From the NCBI GenBank assembly GCA_019057635.1, contig DXJL01000192.1, forward strand, positions 1 through 33,254: a stretch of DNA of 33,254 nucleotides, read 5' to 3'. A program made the translations under genes and the position numbers. The notes below the pieces were generated by a model. It ran no database searches and was not told where the DNA came from. It saw only the letters and a list, made by a program, of their open reading frames with translations. Source of the stretch: Candidatus Heimdallarchaeota archaeon. Its GTDB lineage: Archaea; Asgardarchaeota; Heimdallarchaeia; Hodarchaeales; Hodarchaeaceae. Of the stretch, positions 15,107 through 19,770 are shown in pieces. Each line of letters begins with the position of its first letter. The first letter of the stretch is position 1.

Positions 15107-16444
15107 TTAGAGAACACCTTGAGCCATCATGGCACGGGCTACTTTTAAGAAGCCAGCTACGTTTGCACCGACAACTAGATTACCTGGTGAACCATATTTC
15201 TCTGCAGCATCACGAGAAGATTGGAAGATATTAACCATAATAGAATGAAGACGCTGATCAACTTCTTCTCTAGTCCATGCTAATCGAAGACTATTTTGAG
15301 ACATTTCGAGCCCTGAAGTTGCCACTCCACCCGCGTTGGCAGCTTTTGCTGGACCAAAGGAAACACCTGCATCAAGGAAAATATCAATGGCGTCTAATGT
15401 AGAGGGCATATTCGCGCCTTCACCGACTGCGATACAACCGTTGTCAACTAATTTCTGAGCATCAGTGGCCTCAATTTCATTTTGGGTTGCAGATGGCATA
15501 GCAATATCACATTTTACTTCCCAGGGACGTTTGCCTTGGTAGTAGTCAACATTGAATTTCTCTGCATACTCTTTTATTCGCCCACGACGAATCTGCTTTA
15601 GCTCAAGAAAGAAATCAAATTTTTCACCAGAGATGCCATTAGGATCATAAATGGATCCACTGGAGTCAGAAAGTGTAACAACTTTACCACCTAATTGATT
15701 GACTTTCTCAACAGTATATTGAGCGACATTTCCAGATCCAGAAACCGCTACAATTTTGTCTTTAAAGTCAGTTCCTCGAGTTTTGAGCATTTCTTGGGTA
15801 AAATAGGTGCATCCGTATCCTGTTGCTTCAGGCCTAATAAGAGAACCACCCCATTCAAGACCTTTACCTGTTAATACTCCAGTAAAATCATTGCGTATTT
15901 TGCGGTATTGACCGTAGAGATAACCGATTTCACGTCCTCCGACACCAATATCACCTGCTGGAATATCGGTATCAGGACCTATGTGGCGGAATAACTCTTG
16001 CATGAATGACTGACAAAATCTCATAACTTCATTATTAGACTTACCTTTAGGATCAAAATCCGATCCACCCTTGCCACCTCCCATTGGGAGACCAGTGAGA
16101 GAGTTTTTAAAGACTTGTTCAAATCCGAGGAATTTGATGATCCCTAAATAAACACTTGGATGAAATCTTAGGCCCCCTTTATAAGGGCCAATCGCGCTAT
16201 TAAACTGAACACGGAATCCACGATTTACATGAACTTCTCCATTATCATCAATCCAAGGAACACGAAACATAAATTGTCTTTCGGGTTCCACAATTCGTTC
16301 AAGTATCTTATACTTGCGAAATTCAGGGTGTTTTTCTACAGCAGGAGTAAGTGATTCTAACACTTCTTTTACTGCCTGATGAAATTCTTTTTCACCAGGG
16401 TTTTTAACAACAACTTTATCATATACAGCATCGATGCCTGACAT
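15107..16444 (-). CDS. gdhA: NADP-specific glutamate dehydrogenase
   Basis: [58 protein letters not shown]. Confidence 0.97.
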
Positions 16445-16779
16445 TATTTTGTTACCAACCTATTGAGTTCTTATTCATCGAACGATTTTGATGTTGACTT
16501 GGGAGGAATTAGCCCTTTTCAAGTTTCTGTCTTGGAAACTTGTTCTGATTTCCGGAGGAAAAGGTAGGTTTAAACCATTTTTTACTCTCGGAGTCATCTC
16601 TAAAAACCTTTGAGATGAGATAATATACTCTCTGGTATGATTTTTTTTATCCTAATCCTTTCTTTAAATGCATAAATCAATTTATAAGACCTTGACAAAA
16701 AGATTTGTGAAGAGTACTTTTTGGTAAAGGTAGGGAAAATTTAATCAACGGGAAAAAACTAGATCTTGACTAGATTCTG

Positions 16780-19770
16780 ATGCCCATCCCTCCCCCTAGT
16801 CATTCTAACATAGATGAAATTAAATTTGATTACAAACCGAAATATCAAATATTCCATGAACTCATGATCAAACGGATAAATAACGTTTTGCTCGTTTCAA
16901 GTTATTATGATAATTTTATCCTAGAAGAGGATGGAAGGCTCTCTGATCAAATTTTTGAAGAATTTCATAATTTAAATCTCCGAACTCTTCCTGTAATTAC
17001 TCGGGTGGCAACTGCGAGTGAAGCATTAAATCTACTGAAAGAACAGACTTTTGATCTAGTTATCACCATGAGACGTCTAGGAGATATTGATGTTTTTTCT
17101 TTTGGTTCACAAGTAAAAGAGATACAAAAGATACCTGTCGTCCTCTTATTGAACAACCCTGCGGATGTACCATACTTACCAGATGTTTCTTCTGGAGAAG
17201 GTATCGATAAAATATTCCTATGGAATGGAGATTCCACGGTATTTGTTGCTATCATTAAACACCTTGAAGATAAGATGAATGTGGAGCGTGATACCCGTGT
17301 TGGTTTAGTGCGAGTAATAATTGTAATTGAAGACTCAATTCGCTATTATTCTATTTTTCTTACTAATATGTATAGTGAAATTATGAAACAAACACATAGG
17401 TTAATTTCTGAAGGAGTTAATGATTATTACCATTTACTACAAATGCGGACAAGACCGAAAATATTGTTAGCTTCGAATTTTGAGGATGCTTTGAGATATT
17501 ATGATGACTACAAGCAATATGTTATTGGAGTTATTACTGATGCCAGATTTCCACGTGAAGGAATACTAGATGAATCGGCAGGGTTGACATTTATTAAAAT
17601 AATCAAGAAAGATAATCCCACTCTTCCAATTGCTTTACAATCTAGTAACGAAAAGAATCGGATCCGTGCCGAAAGTTTAGGAGTGTTTTTCATTAATAAA
17701 TTCTCCCGGAAATTACTCAAAACGATCCGTAGCTATATGCTCAATTATCTTGGATTTGGAGATTTTAAATTTCGGTTAAGCGATGGGACAGAAGTCAGCA
17801 GAGCAAAAAATATATTGGAACTTGAAAGAGCGATAGCTACTGTACCCGAAGAATCGTTGATTTATCATGGATCAAATGACCATTTTTCAGGCTGGTTAAT
17901 GAATCGGGGAGAATTTGATATTGCTCAGAGAATTAAACCTCGTAAGGTATCTGAGTTTTCGAAACCTGAGGAATTACGTAAGTTCTTACTCTCTGCGGTT
18001 AACTCTATCTTAACAGAAAAGACTGGAGGAGTTATTAATGACTTCTCAAGAGAATCTTTTCATCCTTCAATTCGTTTTACTCGACTTAGACCTGGTTCTC
18101 TCGGAGGTAAAGGACGTGGGATTGCTTTCCTTCAATTTCTTTTAAACTCATTTCTCTTATCTGACGAATTATCCGAAACCATTTCAATTCGAATACCTAA
18201 AACATTTGTTATCGGTACCGATGAGTTTGACCATTTTATGGATGACAATGAGGAGCTCTATGATGTTGCTTTATCCGATGCTTCTGATGTGGATATTAAA
18301 AAGAGTTTTCTTAAAGCCAAATTAGATGTTAAACTAGTTAAGGATCTTCGATTTATATTAAGAACTCTTCTAGGCCCTCTTTCGGTTCGCTCTTCCAGTT
18401 TATTGGAAGATTCGCAGTTTCAGCCTTTTGCAGGCGTATTCGAGACTTATATGCTTCCAAATAATCAGGACCTGAAGACTCGAGTGAAACTTCTATGCAA
18501 TGCTATCAAATTGGTTTTTGCGTCTTCTTTCTTAAAACAGGCCAAAAGTTATGCGGAATCAACTGGGCAGTCAGTAGACGAATCTAAAATGGCTATAGTC
18601 ATTCAGCAGGTTGTAGGAAGAATAAGACCAAATAATTTATCTTATCCATGTTTTTCTGGAGTAGCCACCTCTTATAATTATTATCCTATTGGGGATTATA
18701 TGCTACCAGAAGATAGAATTGTGTTTTTGGCTGCAGGTTTAGGTAAAACGATTGTAGATGGCGGATTAACTTATAGGTTTTCTCCGAAGTATCCAGAAAT
18801 TAGTTTTTATTCTACTCAAGATCAAATGTTTGAGAACAGTCAGAAACAGTTCTTTGCTATAGACCTTGATTCAAAATCTACTTCCTTTGAACGAGGAGAA
18901 GACTCGTTTCTCGTGAATTCGAGTATTTTCGATTTAGATCCAGAGACACTTCAAAATATTGCAGATACTTTTGACCATAATGATCAAGCCATTAAACCAG
19001 GGTATAGAGGGGATGGAGCTCCAGTTATTGCTTTTAGTAATCAATTAAAGTATGGAGGGGTTCCTTTTGCAAAATTATTTACAAAAATCTTACAATTAGG
19101 AGAACAGACCATGGGTAGTTCTGTTGAGATTGAGTTTGCAGGGAATTTTCAACAGGTTCGAGGTAAGAAAACAACATTTTACTTGTTACAGATTCGTCCT
19201 TATACCCAATATGAGGTCATTCTGGATGAAGAAAAAGAGGGTGTCCCAGAAAATCAAATTCTGATTAAATCTTGCCTTGCCTCGGGTAATAGAATTATTT
19301 CCGATATTCACGATATTGTGTATGTTAAACCTGAAGCATTTGACAAGTTAAAAACTCTGAAAATGGTTTCAGAGATCGGAGAAATTAACAAAAGGTTAAA
19401 AAGGAAAGGAACACCCTATATTCTGATTGGGTTTGGTCGATGGGGAACGTTCGATTCATCATTAGGTATACCTGTTAAATGGCATCATATATCTGGAGTA
19501 CAGGTTATCATTGAAGCTGGTTTAAAGGATTTTCAAGTAGAACATTCTCAAGGAAGTCATTTCTTCCAGAATATCACCACAGCAAATATAGGTTATTTAT
19601 TCATCAATTATAAGTCAAAAGAAGATACAATTGACTGGCAGTGGCTTTTAGAACAAGAATCTGTTGTCGAGGATATGGTTTATTTCCGTCATGTCCGAGT
19701 CCAAAATCCCTTTTATGTTCGAATTGATGGGCGTAAACGTGAAGGGTTAGTGCTTAAACCAGATCTCTGA
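16780..19770 (+). CDS. Receiver-domain / PEP-synthase-type ATP-grasp (PPDK_N) protein with a C-terminal His-swivel-like domain
   Basis: Two receiver-like regions (FDLVITM; VIEDS...ITDARFP...LQSS...NK), YH..NDHFSGWL, GSLGGKGRG, SVRSSSLLEDS..FAG.F, MAIVIQQVVG, GLGKTIVDG, EIEFA, LLQIRP, and C-terminal SQGSHFFQN. Confidence 0.88.
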   Translation: MPIPPPSHSNIDEIKFDYKPKYQIFHELMIKRINNVLLVSSYYDNFILEEDGRLSDQIFEEFHNLNLRTLPVITRVATASEALNLLKEQTFDLVITMRRLGDIDVFSFGSQVKEIQKIPVVLLLNNPADVPYLPDVSSGEGIDKIFLWNGDSTVFVAIIKHLEDKMNVERDTRVGLVRVIIVIEDSIRYYSIFLTNMYSEIMKQTHRLISEGVNDYYHLLQMRTRPKILLASNFEDALRYYDDYKQYVIGVITDARFPREGILDESAGLTFIKIIKKDNPTLPIALQSSNEKNRIRAESLGVFFINKFSRKLLKTIRSYMLNYLGFGDFKFRLSDGTEVSRAKNILELERAIATVPEESLIYHGSNDHFSGWLMNRGEFDIAQRIKPRKVSEFSKPEELRKFLLSAVNSILTEKTGGVINDFSRESFHPSIRFTRLRPGSLGGKGRGIAFLQFLLNSFLLSDELSETISIRIPKTFVIGTDEFDHFMDDNEELYDVALSDASDVDIKKSFLKAKLDVKLVKDLRFILRTLLGPLSVRSSSLLEDSQFQPFAGVFETYMLPNNQDLKTRVKLLCNAIKLVFASSFLKQAKSYAESTGQSVDESKMAIVIQQVVGRIRPNNLSYPCFSGVATSYNYYPIGDYMLPEDRIVFLAAGLGKTIVDGGLTYRFSPKYPEISFYSTQDQMFENSQKQFFAIDLDSKSTSFERGEDSFLVNSSIFDLDPETLQNIADTFDHNDQAIKPGYRGDGAPVIAFSNQLKYGGVPFAKLFTKILQLGEQTMGSSVEIEFAGNFQQVRGKKTTFYLLQIRPYTQYEVILDEEKEGVPENQILIKSCLASGNRIISDIHDIVYVKPEAFDKLKTLKMVSEIGEINKRLKRKGTPYILIGFGRWGTFDSSLGIPVKWHHISGVQVIIEAGLKDFQVEHSQGSHFFQNITTANIGYLFINYKSKEDTIDWQWLLEQESVVEDMVYFRHVRVQNPFYVRIDGRKREGLVLKPDL

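Follow-up and report, generated by a model that had tools for sequence, protein, structure and literature searches.

This locus raises the question of why a protein built of receiver domains and a dikinase-type ATP-grasp is encoded head-to-head with a glutamate dehydrogenase (GDH) gene in an Asgard archaeon, and what it might do to that enzyme. The window, meaning the whole stretch of 33,254 nucleotides of Candidatus Heimdallarchaeota contig DXJL01000192.1 that was analysed, carries gdhA and, across a common spacer, the gene for a 996-aa protein (Table 1); both open reading frames and their divergence are as the first-pass annotation had placed them. GdhA matches Pfam ELFV_dehydrog and ELFV_dehydrog_N and, with 769.9 bits, clears the cut-off of 536 for the NCBIfam NADP-GDH model PRK09414; the 3.19-Mb genome has no other GdhA-type match. 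The gene for the 996-aa protein is single-copy as well and adjoins this sole gdhA.

Table 1. Positions of the genes and domains discussed (numbered along the window; residues refer to the 996-aa protein)
Feature	Position	Strand	Residues	Remarks
Multi-PAS protein	12382..15051	+		889 aa; probable sensor histidine kinase; candidate REC2 phosphodonor, this genus only
gdhA	15107..16444	-		445 aa; family-I hexameric-type NADP glutamate dehydrogenase; proposed target or partner
Intergenic region common to gdhA and the regulator gene	16445..16779	.		335 bp, divergent, 33% GC
Gene of the pseudoREC-REC-linker-ATP-grasp-His-domain protein (P0001)	16780..19770	+		996 aa
REC1, pseudo-receiver	16867..17289	+	~30-170	S40/S41, T96/M97; Response_reg, Foldseek
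REC2, intact receiver	17305..17748	+	~176-323	E184, D185, D254, S288, K307
Linker domain, DUF5752-like	17752..18075	+	~325-432	Weak Pfam DUF5752, E 0.011
ATP-grasp, PPDK/PEP-synthase type	18076..19215	+	~433-812	PPDK_N, Foldseek, profile, invariant columns
C-terminal swivel-type domain	19216..19767	+	~813-996	S923-Q-G925-S-H927-F-F-Q-N931; candidate phospho-histidine carrier

The 996-aa protein was modelled by AF2 with a pLDDT of 88.8 and a pTM of 0.86, and it comprises five domains, namely a pseudo-receiver, a receiver, a DUF5752-like linker, a PPDK/PEP-synthase ATP-grasp and a C-terminal His domain. The first of these, REC1, matches Pfam Response_reg over residues 67-123 at 29.1 bits, slightly below the 30.2 cut-off, while residues 57-163 were matched to solved receiver domains by the A1 profile, and the tandem-REC protein PleD is among its Foldseek matches together with other receivers. 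Serines stand where the acidic pair is expected, and the acceptor position (D92-L-V-I-T96-M97) is without Asp; REC1 is therefore a pseudo-receiver, since the receiver fold is present while both the Asp and the acidic pair are absent. The pairing of a true with a pseudo-receiver is shared with PleD, whereas the GGDEF output of PleD is absent here. In the AF2 model of REC2, strand beta1 ends at the acidic pair, beta3 at D254 (codon 17539-17541), beta4 at S288 and beta5 at K307, and among 64 diverse full-length representatives (32-67% identity) these residues are retained in 62 (E184), 54 (D185), 57 (D254), 58 (S288) and 61 (K307) cases. By predicted structure and conservation, REC2 thus has the (beta/alpha)5 fold, acidic pair, Asp, Ser/Thr and Lys of a response regulator, and the contrast that the first-pass annotation drew between a DLVITM receiver lacking its Asp and a second one with the full residue set holds.

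The linker domain rises above the DUF5752 cut-off in relatives of the protein (a paralogue at locus L008, 23.8 bits; P0140, 25.5 bits), and an atlas comparison scored it at 0.83, which is a lead only. The ATP-grasp is matched by Pfam PPDK_N (PF01326) at residues 440-812 with an E-value of 1e-36 and carries the motifs G442-G-K444, R537-S-S, E543-D544, E783/E785 and Q804/R806. Across the 64 relatives, G442, G443, K444, R537, S538, S539, E543, D544 and Q804 are invariant, and E783, E785 and R806 are retained in at least 90%. Foldseek returned 5hv3 at an E-value of 7e-12 as well as 2ols and 1kbl, and the profile search recovered rifampin phosphotransferase (RPH) at 1.3e-11 together with PEP synthases. 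Judged by these motifs and matches, the ATP-grasp domain is intact and homologous to RPH and PEP synthase, which bears out its initial description as a PEP-synthase-type domain.

The C-terminal domain holds the histidine on which the proposed chemistry would depend. H927 (codon 19558-19560) is followed by 69 further residues and opens a helix at 927-934 in the AF2 model; its motif is conserved in nearly all of the 64 relatives (S923 in 63, G925 in 64, H927 in 63, F928 in 63), and this residue pattern is not due to chance. Modelled alone, the domain has a pLDDT of 90.4. VIA-align against 48,161 chains placed the phosphoryl-carrier domain of PPDK first (2fm4, Z 6.9, 117 aligned), followed by RPH 756-867 and maize PPDK 385-513 (both Z 6.6), and in another fold comparison the top eight were all PEP-utilizer-type domains (Z 5.8-6.5); such values of 5.8-6.9 are moderate and, according to the tool's own warning, can be common. 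At the sequence level, hhalign against 18 canonical PEP-utilizer domains gave probabilities below 1%, Pfam PF00391 (PEP-utilizers) had no match in the protein at E<=1, the two sites of the PF00391 HMM in the genome both lie outside the window, and Foldseek with the domain alone returned nothing at E<=1e-3. By these moderate fold scores, the domain is predicted to be of swivel type and a candidate phospho-His carrier, without sequence similarity to the PEP-utilizer mobile domains. The likeness of SQGSHFFQN to the dikinase TSH motif, as first proposed, is accordingly retained for the predicted fold and for the position of the His at a helix N-terminus, while it fails as sequence homology.

The protein terminates at residue 996 after a His domain of ~185 residues, and no PEP/pyruvate TIM barrel (PEP-utilizers_C, PF02896) was found in it at E<=1. 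Its best score against a PEP-synthase equivalog is 49 bits, with cut-offs of 598-1300. Because the barrel is missing and the equivalog scores fall so far under the cut-offs, an identity as PEP synthase was rejected, and a barrel-less dikinase derivative is supported, as the first reading of the sequence had held on both counts.

Gene linkage points to GDH. Of 78 loci drawn from many phyla, 47 have gdhA no more than 3 kb from a family member, and 35 of these no more than 700 bp away; no other neighbour is conserved, gdhA being counted at 44 loci and the next ORF cluster at 8. The 47 linked gdhA genes occur upstream on the same strand (20), divergent (11), convergent (8), downstream on the same strand (5) or between two paralogues (3). 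Among Asgard genomes with a full-length member, GdhA is found within 500 bp in 17 of 27, divergent in the genus of the window and convergent in another family, and in Bacteroidaceae it is found within 2.5 kb in 24 of 55 genomes. The linkage in Bacteroidota and other anaerobes to which the first-pass annotation had pointed is thus real and strong in both Bacteria and Archaea. The remaining 31 of the 78 loci are without gdh within 3 kb, and in 14 of them the flanks extend for 3 kb or more in either direction. No fusion to GDH was seen among nine extended relatives, nor among proteins longer than 1743 aa. Since its relatives adjoin GDH genes in so many bacterial and archaeal groups, the protein probably controls GDH rather than making PEP.

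Relatives with other architectures help to assign roles within the protein. A receiver-less relative of 592 aa is GDH-adjacent, relatives of 868 and 886 aa with an unassigned N-terminus are encoded divergently from GdhA in a pair of Asgard genomes, and relatives of 1060-1110 aa that include a fused Pol-beta-type nucleotidyltransferase adjoin a second GDH type; all keep S-x-G-[ST]-H-F-F. The S-x-G-[ST]-H portion is near-invariant down to relatives of 28% identity. As forms without receivers, or with another N-terminus, still have the His motif and still adjoin GDH genes, the receiver appears to be an input and not the destination of the phosphate, which argues that the ATP-grasp/His core is the part that would act on GDH.

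The reading that we favour is a response-regulator-type enzyme whose output module is a barrel-less dikinase and which acts on the neighbouring GDH under receiver control; we give it a probability of about one half. The ATP-grasp would phosphorylate His927 of the remodelled swivelling carrier domain at the expense of ATP, and the ATP-grasp/His core would then act post-translationally on the adjacent GDH. That action might be a transfer of phosphate, although we know of no firm precedent for a swivel His donating its phosphate to a side chain of a protein. It might instead be phosphorylation-dependent binding, as reported for VadK and the methylcitrate-cycle enzymes. Control would enter through the pseudo-receiver/receiver pair, with a histidine kinase phosphorylating D254 and so turning the core either on or off, perhaps via dimerisation as in PleD; in this genus, the adjacent multi-PAS protein is a possible phosphodonor.

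By its published description, VadK (Rv1127c) of Mycobacterium tuberculosis is the nearest studied analogue, being, like the 996-aa protein, a barrel-less PPDK relative with an ATP-grasp and a His domain. It is reported to phosphorylate itself at His422 and to bring down methylcitrate-cycle enzymes in pull-downs; on account of these properties, it is regarded as a regulator and not a PEP-forming enzyme (PMC13400623). VadK, as described there, is a protein of ~50 kDa without receivers whose His site was found by overlay on PPDK (PMC13400623), whereas the 996-aa protein carries a fused linker and two receiver-type domains, has a His domain too remodelled to be recognised by sequence, and is linked to GDH instead. 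RPH of Listeria monocytogenes (5hv1/5hv3/5fbs), which matched the ATP-grasp best by both structure and profile, likewise has a C-terminal His swivel domain (matched at Z 6.2-6.6) but differs in its intervening rifampin-binding domain, its canonical PEP-utilizer His domain and the lack of receivers and of a GDH link. PEP synthase and PPDK share a homologous ATP-grasp (GGK, RSS..ED and Q.R motifs) and a carrier domain of the same predicted fold class, while their TIM barrel and TSH-type PF00391 signature (G-G-x-T-S-H) are both absent from the 996-aa protein. The architecture itself was listed by Galperin et al. 2018 as response regulators of the type 'REC + pyruvate phosphate dikinase', with Heimdallarchaeota named; the entry as published is a listing without function, GDH link or His-domain analysis (PMC5847659).

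An unlikely alternative is that the core is a small-molecule dikinase, which under receiver control either phosphorylates some metabolite at the glutamate/2-oxoglutarate node or produces a phosphorylated signal, the adjacency then reflecting a shared pathway. The characterised relatives that were recovered (RPH, PEP synthase, PPDK and HpeI) all phosphorylate small molecules. Moreover, GdhA enzymes with and without the partner differ in one column (V111 versus I), no partner-specific acceptor residue being apparent, and the DUF5752-like linker could bind a ligand. This linker, however, lies outside the conserved core, as the other architectures align with the 996-aa protein only from residue ~399-439 on, and a substrate-binding barrel or RIF-type domain is absent. 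In addition, one locus (L008) carries three family members and three GDH genes alternating one-to-one, and such interleaving with three paralogues is more typical of protein-specific partners.

The first-pass annotation had named the protein's own receiver Asp as one possible phosphate acceptor, beside GDH and a small molecule. In such a self-contained phosphorelay, phosphate would pass from ATP to His927 and on to Asp254, with the phosphorylated receiver as the output on GDH or another target. Both residues are indeed well conserved on one polypeptide, and no histidine kinase is a conserved neighbour of the family across the 78 loci. Retention of the His motif and GDH adjacency in receiver-less and other-N-terminus forms nevertheless implies a target for the histidine other than the receiver, and this idea was not upheld as the core mechanism; D254 is lost in 7 of the 64 relatives, against one loss of H927, and to our knowledge transfer from a swivel His to a receiver Asp is without precedent. 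A probable PAS histidine kinase is also encoded next door in this genus. Its product has five PAS stretches, an H-box-like stretch in its translation and a weak HATPase_c match at 800-881 (E 0.02, below cut-off); it had no match among solved kinases, and its homologues occur at only two of the 78 loci (L001 and L002). Overall, we consider the relay distinctly improbable.

Slighter still is the chance of an ATP-dependent sensor or scaffold without any phospho-His step, whose C-terminal domain would be structural or binding, with its conserved His in a non-carrier role, and which would regulate GDH by nucleotide-dependent binding only. The undetectable sequence relation of this domain to PEP-utilizer domains and its moderate fold scores would suit such a protein, and swivelling beta/beta/alpha domains without a carrier role, namely the pyruvate kinase C-terminal domain and DRTGG, equal the carriers in score (Z 6.5). 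Against it stand the near-invariant S-x-G-[ST]-H at a helix N-terminus, kept across relatives of 28% identity, and the order of ATP-grasp followed by His domain, which is that of RPH.

A broader version of the favoured reading, in which dikinase-type phospho-His under two-component control modifies GDH hexamers, may be entertained tentatively, though we think it doubtful. GlnE/GlnD and AceK are enzyme-modifying switches in which a dedicated modifier is encoded beside a central metabolic enzyme; the comparison drawn here is one of function, and some relatives carry a fused Pol-beta-type nucleotidyltransferase. If true, the family would be the long-missing covalent switch of GDH, comparable to GlnE acting on glutamine synthetase or AceK on isocitrate dehydrogenase. 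Its range would reach from Bacteroides and Acidobacteriota as far as the Heimdall group of Asgard archaea, and sister architectures, nucleotidyltransferase fusions among them, would serve other GDH types. The 'trans-acting gene(s)' that the title of Baggio & Morrison 1996 reportedly places near gdhA of Bacteroides thetaiotaomicron would then be identified as well.

Horizontal transfer has occurred, since the Asgard members group in a single clade within the bacterial sequences, and 10 of the 27 Asgard genomes and 31 of the 55 Bacteroidaceae genomes have the two genes apart or on different contigs. That the adjacency is merely a by-product of joint transfer or chance, or that the protein is an ordinary PEP synthase, is nonetheless hardly credible, as rough arithmetic puts chance adjacency to the single gdhA of a 3-Mb genome at far less than 1%, the association turns up in every orientation, with two GDH types and in four or more architectures, and, besides the missing barrel and low equivalog scores, the same genome has a separate canonical PEP-synthase-type gene of 818 aa on contig C133.

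The 996-aa protein encoded beside the glutamate dehydrogenase (GDH) gene gdhA is predicted by AlphaFold2 (input of 64 diverse relatives; pLDDT 88.8, pTM 0.86) to fold into five domains, which are listed with the other features in the table. The first-pass annotation described the N-terminal domain as a pseudo-receiver (DLVITM) without Asp, and this reading is upheld by the alignment, in which the T96/M97 columns are mostly T or M and Asp never predominates among the 64 relatives. The second receiver, said there to hold a full ED/D254/S/K set, has these residues at the canonical strand ends, and they are widely kept (E184 in 62, D185 in 54, D254 in 57, S288 in 58 and K307 in 61 of the 64 relatives); the receiver pair is matched by Foldseek to the tandem-receiver regulator PleD. 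The linker resembles DUF5752 weakly, while in some relatives the match is over the cut-off. The ATP-grasp domain was also correctly recognized as PEP-synthase-type. Its nucleotide and phosphate motifs G442-G-K444, R537-S-S, E543-D544 and Q804 do not vary among the 64 relatives, at least 90% of which also keep E783, E785 and R806. Moreover, the family profile finds rifampin phosphotransferase (RPH; E 1.3e-11) and also PEP synthases among solved structures, and Foldseek matches the domain to 5hv3 (E 7e-12), 2ols and 1kbl. A phmmer search of the whole protein against the PDB gave one weak receiver match and nothing else. No PEP/pyruvate barrel is found by Pfam at E<=1, as had been noticed earlier, and the chain stops after the fifth domain.

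Features of the window, domains of the 996-aa protein (residue numbers) and family loci with other architectures
Feature	Position	Strand	Description
467-aa protein	6312-7715	-	DUF1858 + DUF438 + hemerythrin domain + PAS_10
ArsR-type regulator, then heavy-metal P-type ATPase	7974-10442	+	
RNase III	10896-11594	-	232 aa; Ribonuclease_3 + dsRNA-binding motif
Multi-PAS protein	12382..15051	+	889 aa; five PAS stretches, weak HATPase_c (E 0.02), H-box-like stretch
gdhA	15107..16444	-	445 aa, divergent from 996-aa ORF
996-aa ORF	16780..19770	+	head-to-head with gdhA
TldD/PmbA-type metallopeptidase pair	22041-24867	+	overlapping
883-aa protein	25470-28121	-	DUF1156 + scattered methyltransferase motifs
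Domain 1, receiver-like	about 30-170		S40 S41 instead of acidic pair; T96/M97 at phospho-Asp position
Domain 2, second receiver	about 176-323		E184/D185, D254, S288, K307 ending beta1, beta3, beta4, beta5 (AlphaFold2 model)
Domain 3, small helical/beta linker	about 325-432		weak DUF5752 similarity, E 0.011
Domain 4, PPDK/PEP-synthase ATP-grasp	about 433-812		Pfam PPDK_N E 1e-36
Domain 5, His-motif domain	about 813-996		S923-Q-G-S-H927-F-F-Q-N
L008 locus (Bacteroidota MAG)	352-14430		three GDH genes, three family genes
L008 family gene 1			1060 aa; N-terminus without assignment + PPDK_N + SFGTHFF domain + Pol-beta-type nucleotidyltransferase (NTP_transf_2)
L008 GDH, second type			428 aa, 31% identity; beside the NTP_transf_2-fused 1060-aa protein
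L008 family genes 2 and 3			1032 aa and 1018 aa; REC-type paralogues
L008 GdhAs			71% after 1032-aa paralogue; second, 66%, after 1018-aa paralogue
L032 gene row	13801-20166		NTase-fused form (1110 aa), 592-aa receiver-less form (SQGSHFF), type-2 GDH
L131 (Asgard genome G103)	2314-6551		886-aa form head-to-head with GdhA, spacer 224 bp
L132 (Asgard genome G132)	2273-6540		868-aa form head-to-head with GdhA, spacer 308 bp

The His motif of the fifth domain is nearly invariant (S923 in 63, G925 in 64, H927 in 63, F928 in 63, F929 in 62 and N931 in 59 of the 64 relatives). Its proposed resemblance to the phosphocarrier TSH motif of PPDK and PEP synthase finds moderate agreement in the predicted fold, but no link in sequence. 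The PEP-utilizer mobile domain PF00391 has no match in the 996-aa protein (two sites in the genome both lie outside the window), hhalign against 18 canonical mobile domains from Asgard PEP-synthase/PPDK genes gave probabilities below 1%, and a profile of 63 C-terminal domains found only chance-level longin matches among PDB sequences. Foldseek with the model of the domain alone (pLDDT 90.4) returned no match at E<=1e-3. In an exhaustive VIA-align comparison with 48,161 chains, the top match was 2fm4, an NMR structure of the phosphoryl-carrier domain of PPDK (Z 6.9, 117 residues, rmsd 3.9), followed by the His domains of rifampin phosphotransferase (5hv1 756-867, Z 6.6) and maize PPDK (1vbg 385-513, Z 6.6), all at moderate Z-scores that may reflect merely a common arrangement. 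The PEP-utilizer-like C-terminal domain of Bacillus pyruvate kinase and Enzyme I ranked lower, and in a second run the best eight chains were all PEP-utilizer-type domains (Z 5.8-6.5). In addition, helix 927-934 of the AlphaFold2 model begins at H927, and the catalytic His of PPDK is likewise placed at the start of a helix. A limited conclusion is that the C-terminal domain is predicted to have a swivelling beta/beta/alpha fold, closest to phospho-His carrier domains, with a near-invariant His; a carrier function is suggested by this model.

GdhA belongs to the standard family-I NADP glutamate dehydrogenases by its Pfam domains ELFV_dehydrog and ELFV_dehydrog_N and its score on NCBIfam PRK09414 (769.9 bits, cut-off 536), and a spacer of 335 bp with 33% GC separates its gene from the 996-aa ORF. 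The genome (3.19 Mb, 92% complete) contains a single gdhA and a single family gene, which adjoin each other, and by our own arithmetic the chance of such adjacency in a genome of 3.19 Mb is well below 1%. A Heimdallarchaeota B3_Heim contig (L001) carries a copy of the 996-aa protein that is 97% identical. The 889-aa multi-PAS gene is convergent with gdhA and, judging from its domains, probably encodes a sensor histidine kinase; among the best 78 of at least 922 loci, its homologues are present only in the two closest, L001 and L002.

Relatives of the 996-aa protein form a large family. A phmmer search of 1.84 billion cluster representatives gave 4554 matches at E<=1e-3, of which 986 (50%-identity clusters) reach E<=1e-30; full-length proteins (about 1000 aa, 31-68% identity) make up most of the best 150. 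When one genome was scanned for each GTDB species, relatives were confirmed in at least 922 species representatives. The linkage survey covers the best 78 of these at least 922 loci, with two from Asgard archaea, one from Thermoplasmata and the remainder from Bacteria, including Acidobacteriota, Bacteroidota, Thermodesulfobacteriota, Gemmatimonadota, Fibrobacterota, Cloacimonadota, Zixiibacteriota, Myxococcota and Pseudomonadota. The gdh linkage stated in the first-pass annotation is found in this set: in 47 of the 78 loci the family gene has a GdhA (57-98% identity, tblastn with the window GdhA) no farther than 3 kb away, and in 35 of these 47 no farther than 700 bp. The gdhA gene is upstream on the same strand in 20 linked loci, divergent in 11, convergent in eight, downstream on the same strand in five and between two paralogues in three. 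The 31 loci with no gdhA within 3 kb comprise 17 whose flank falls short of 3 kb on one or both sides and 14 true negatives. When the 721 ORFs within 6 kb of these 78 loci were clustered, GdhA was the sole conserved neighbour (44 loci; next cluster 8), and no conserved histidine kinase was found among them.

The same linkage recurs in two further samples; overall, a sizeable minority of genomes have the family gene and gdhA separated. Among 151 Asgard genomes, 27 carry a full-length family member, nearly all in the class of the window's genome. Of these 27, 17 have GdhA on the same contig at a distance of up to 500 bp: six, from the window's genus, show the divergent arrangement, and 11, from another family, the convergent one. 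In the remaining ten, 114-117 kb separate the genes on two complete chromosomes, four genomes carry them on different contigs, one (85% complete) yielded no GdhA, one has nothing but a distant GDH, about 3 kb upstream, and two show fragments at contig ends. In 61 genomes of Bacteroidaceae, the family to which the genome of locus L070 belongs, exactly one family match is present in 55 (three partial, two with a single internal stop). Among these 55, the distance to GdhA is at most 2.5 kb in 24 and larger, though still on one contig, in 10; the other 21 have GdhA on a different contig. Since related genomes are non-independent, these fractions serve as a description of the pattern and not as a test.

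The family also includes proteins of other architectures, which tell most about the mechanism. In L008 the GDH and family genes alternate one-to-one, and L029 and L065, judged from coordinates, resemble this arrangement. Two Asgard genomes outside the REC-type set encode the 886- and 868-aa forms, in which an N-terminus of about 300 aa precedes PPDK_N and an SLGTHFF domain; this N-terminus has no significant Pfam or PDB match (a KaiC match, at E 0.15, falls short of significance). What the GDH-linked forms share is the ATP-grasp and His-motif domain, while accessory domains vary. Because this core is constant and its accessories are variable, the core may act on, or with, GDH, and the same variation speaks for the receivers being one input among several that can replace each other. 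Two long relatives, P0140 (1557 aa) and P0175 (1524 aa), carry about 550-585 additional residues at the N-terminus, in which Pfam finds nothing at E<=0.001. A match to the ATP-grasp/His core (28% identity over 65%) was also found in P0272, a 1880-aa 'putative phosphoenolpyruvate synthase' of the eukaryote Paratrimastix pyriformis.

The 996-aa protein has an ATP-grasp and a receiver that are both intact, a C-terminal swivel-type fold with a conserved His, no barrel and tight genomic coupling to GDH, and it may be classed both as a dikinase-derived regulator and as a response regulator with enzymatic output. In the proposed mechanism, ATP would load a phosphoryl group on H927, and the phospho-His domain would then phosphorylate GDH, or bind it phosphorylation-dependently. 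Phosphorylation of D254 would gate the action of the core on GDH, and in the window's genus the multi-PAS protein might be the kinase. On the GDH side, 45 linked and 20 unlinked Asgard GdhAs differ at one column, V111/I, from which no acceptor site is put forward. Family matches are missing at the 20 unlinked loci, but these come from genomes picked for absence of the family, so this is no independent control. No GDH fusion was found in nine extended relatives, and neither of two matches among proteins of 1744-4980 aa has a GDH domain, which is weak evidence. An uncontrolled complex prediction from alignments (residues 433-996 with GdhA 12-445) gave ipSAE 0.00 and 0.00 and weighs neither way.

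A small molecule is a possible alternative acceptor of the core's phosphate. Transfer to the protein's own receiver Asp, as the first-pass annotation had also suggested, would suit the conservation of both H927 and D254, but as an obligatory step it is argued against by the receiver-less forms and those with another N-terminus, which keep both the His motif and GDH adjacency. Lacking the barrel, and with PEP-synthase, PigC and RPH equivalogs scoring at most 49 bits against cut-offs of 598-1300, the protein is not to be filed as a PEP synthase or PPDK, in line with the earlier reading. Its closest named homologues (Candidatus Hodarchaeales/Heimdallarchaeota MAGs, identity up to 92%) are labelled 'PEP/pyruvate-binding domain-containing protein'. 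A separate canonical PEP-synthase-type gene (818 aa) lies on another contig of the same genome.

GDH stands at the junction of carbon and nitrogen metabolism, and to our knowledge its post-translational control in bacteria and archaea is poorly understood compared with that of glutamine synthetase. 'Reversible inactivation in vivo' of the Bacteroides fragilis enzyme was reportedly described by Yamamoto in 1987, and the title of a 1996 study by Baggio and Morrison names 'trans-acting gene(s)' near gdhA of Bacteroides thetaiotaomicron, which may bear on the family. Our literature searches for the family or its GDH link found no paper. A large family with one consistent genomic partner would provide a candidate for the control of GDH that can be tested in gut Bacteroides amenable to genetics, and would add a dikinase module as a new output class of two-component signalling. 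The REC and dikinase architecture was already listed by Galperin et al. 2018 (PMC5847659), with no function or GDH link in the relevant passages. The domain order, an ATP-grasp with a His swivel domain at the C-terminus, is that of rifampin phosphotransferase. As far as its description allows comparison, the published analogue is VadK (PMC13400623), likewise a barrel-less PPDK relative, which is reported to autophosphorylate His422 in vitro and to co-precipitate methylcitrate-cycle enzymes, with modulation by binding proposed. The present family would extend the VadK-based idea that PPDK relatives are recruited as regulators of metabolic enzymes.

The origin of the Asgard gene was considered with a FastTree tree (SH-like supports, midpoint root) of 75 rows, namely 73 of the 92 locus family ORFs, the window protein and one further Asgard protein; 19 ORFs outside 930-1200 aa or lacking the motif were left out. 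The four Asgard proteins form one clade (support 100), and within the bacterial diversity this clade joins one of Cloacimonadota, Bacteroidota and Chlorobiota (support 92). The protein from Thermoplasmata is placed elsewhere, and the two NTase-fused forms fall outside. This topology, which is no rigorous test of direction, fits acquisition of the family gene by the Asgard lineage from Bacteria, and the phrase 'Bacteroides-like combination' in a passage of Galperin et al. 2018 (PMC5847659) agrees with such an origin. In Asgard archaea the gene resembles a regulatory module of bacterial type and is carried chiefly by the Heimdall-group class.

Other genes of the window include one for CDP-archaeol synthase and, in this archaeal setting, one for a bacterial-type RNase III. 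An ArsR-type regulator precedes a heavy-metal P-type ATPase, and a pair of TldD/PmbA-type metallopeptidase genes is also present. The 467-aa protein is likely O2/NO- or iron-sensing, and the 883-aa protein is a probable DNA methyltransferase.
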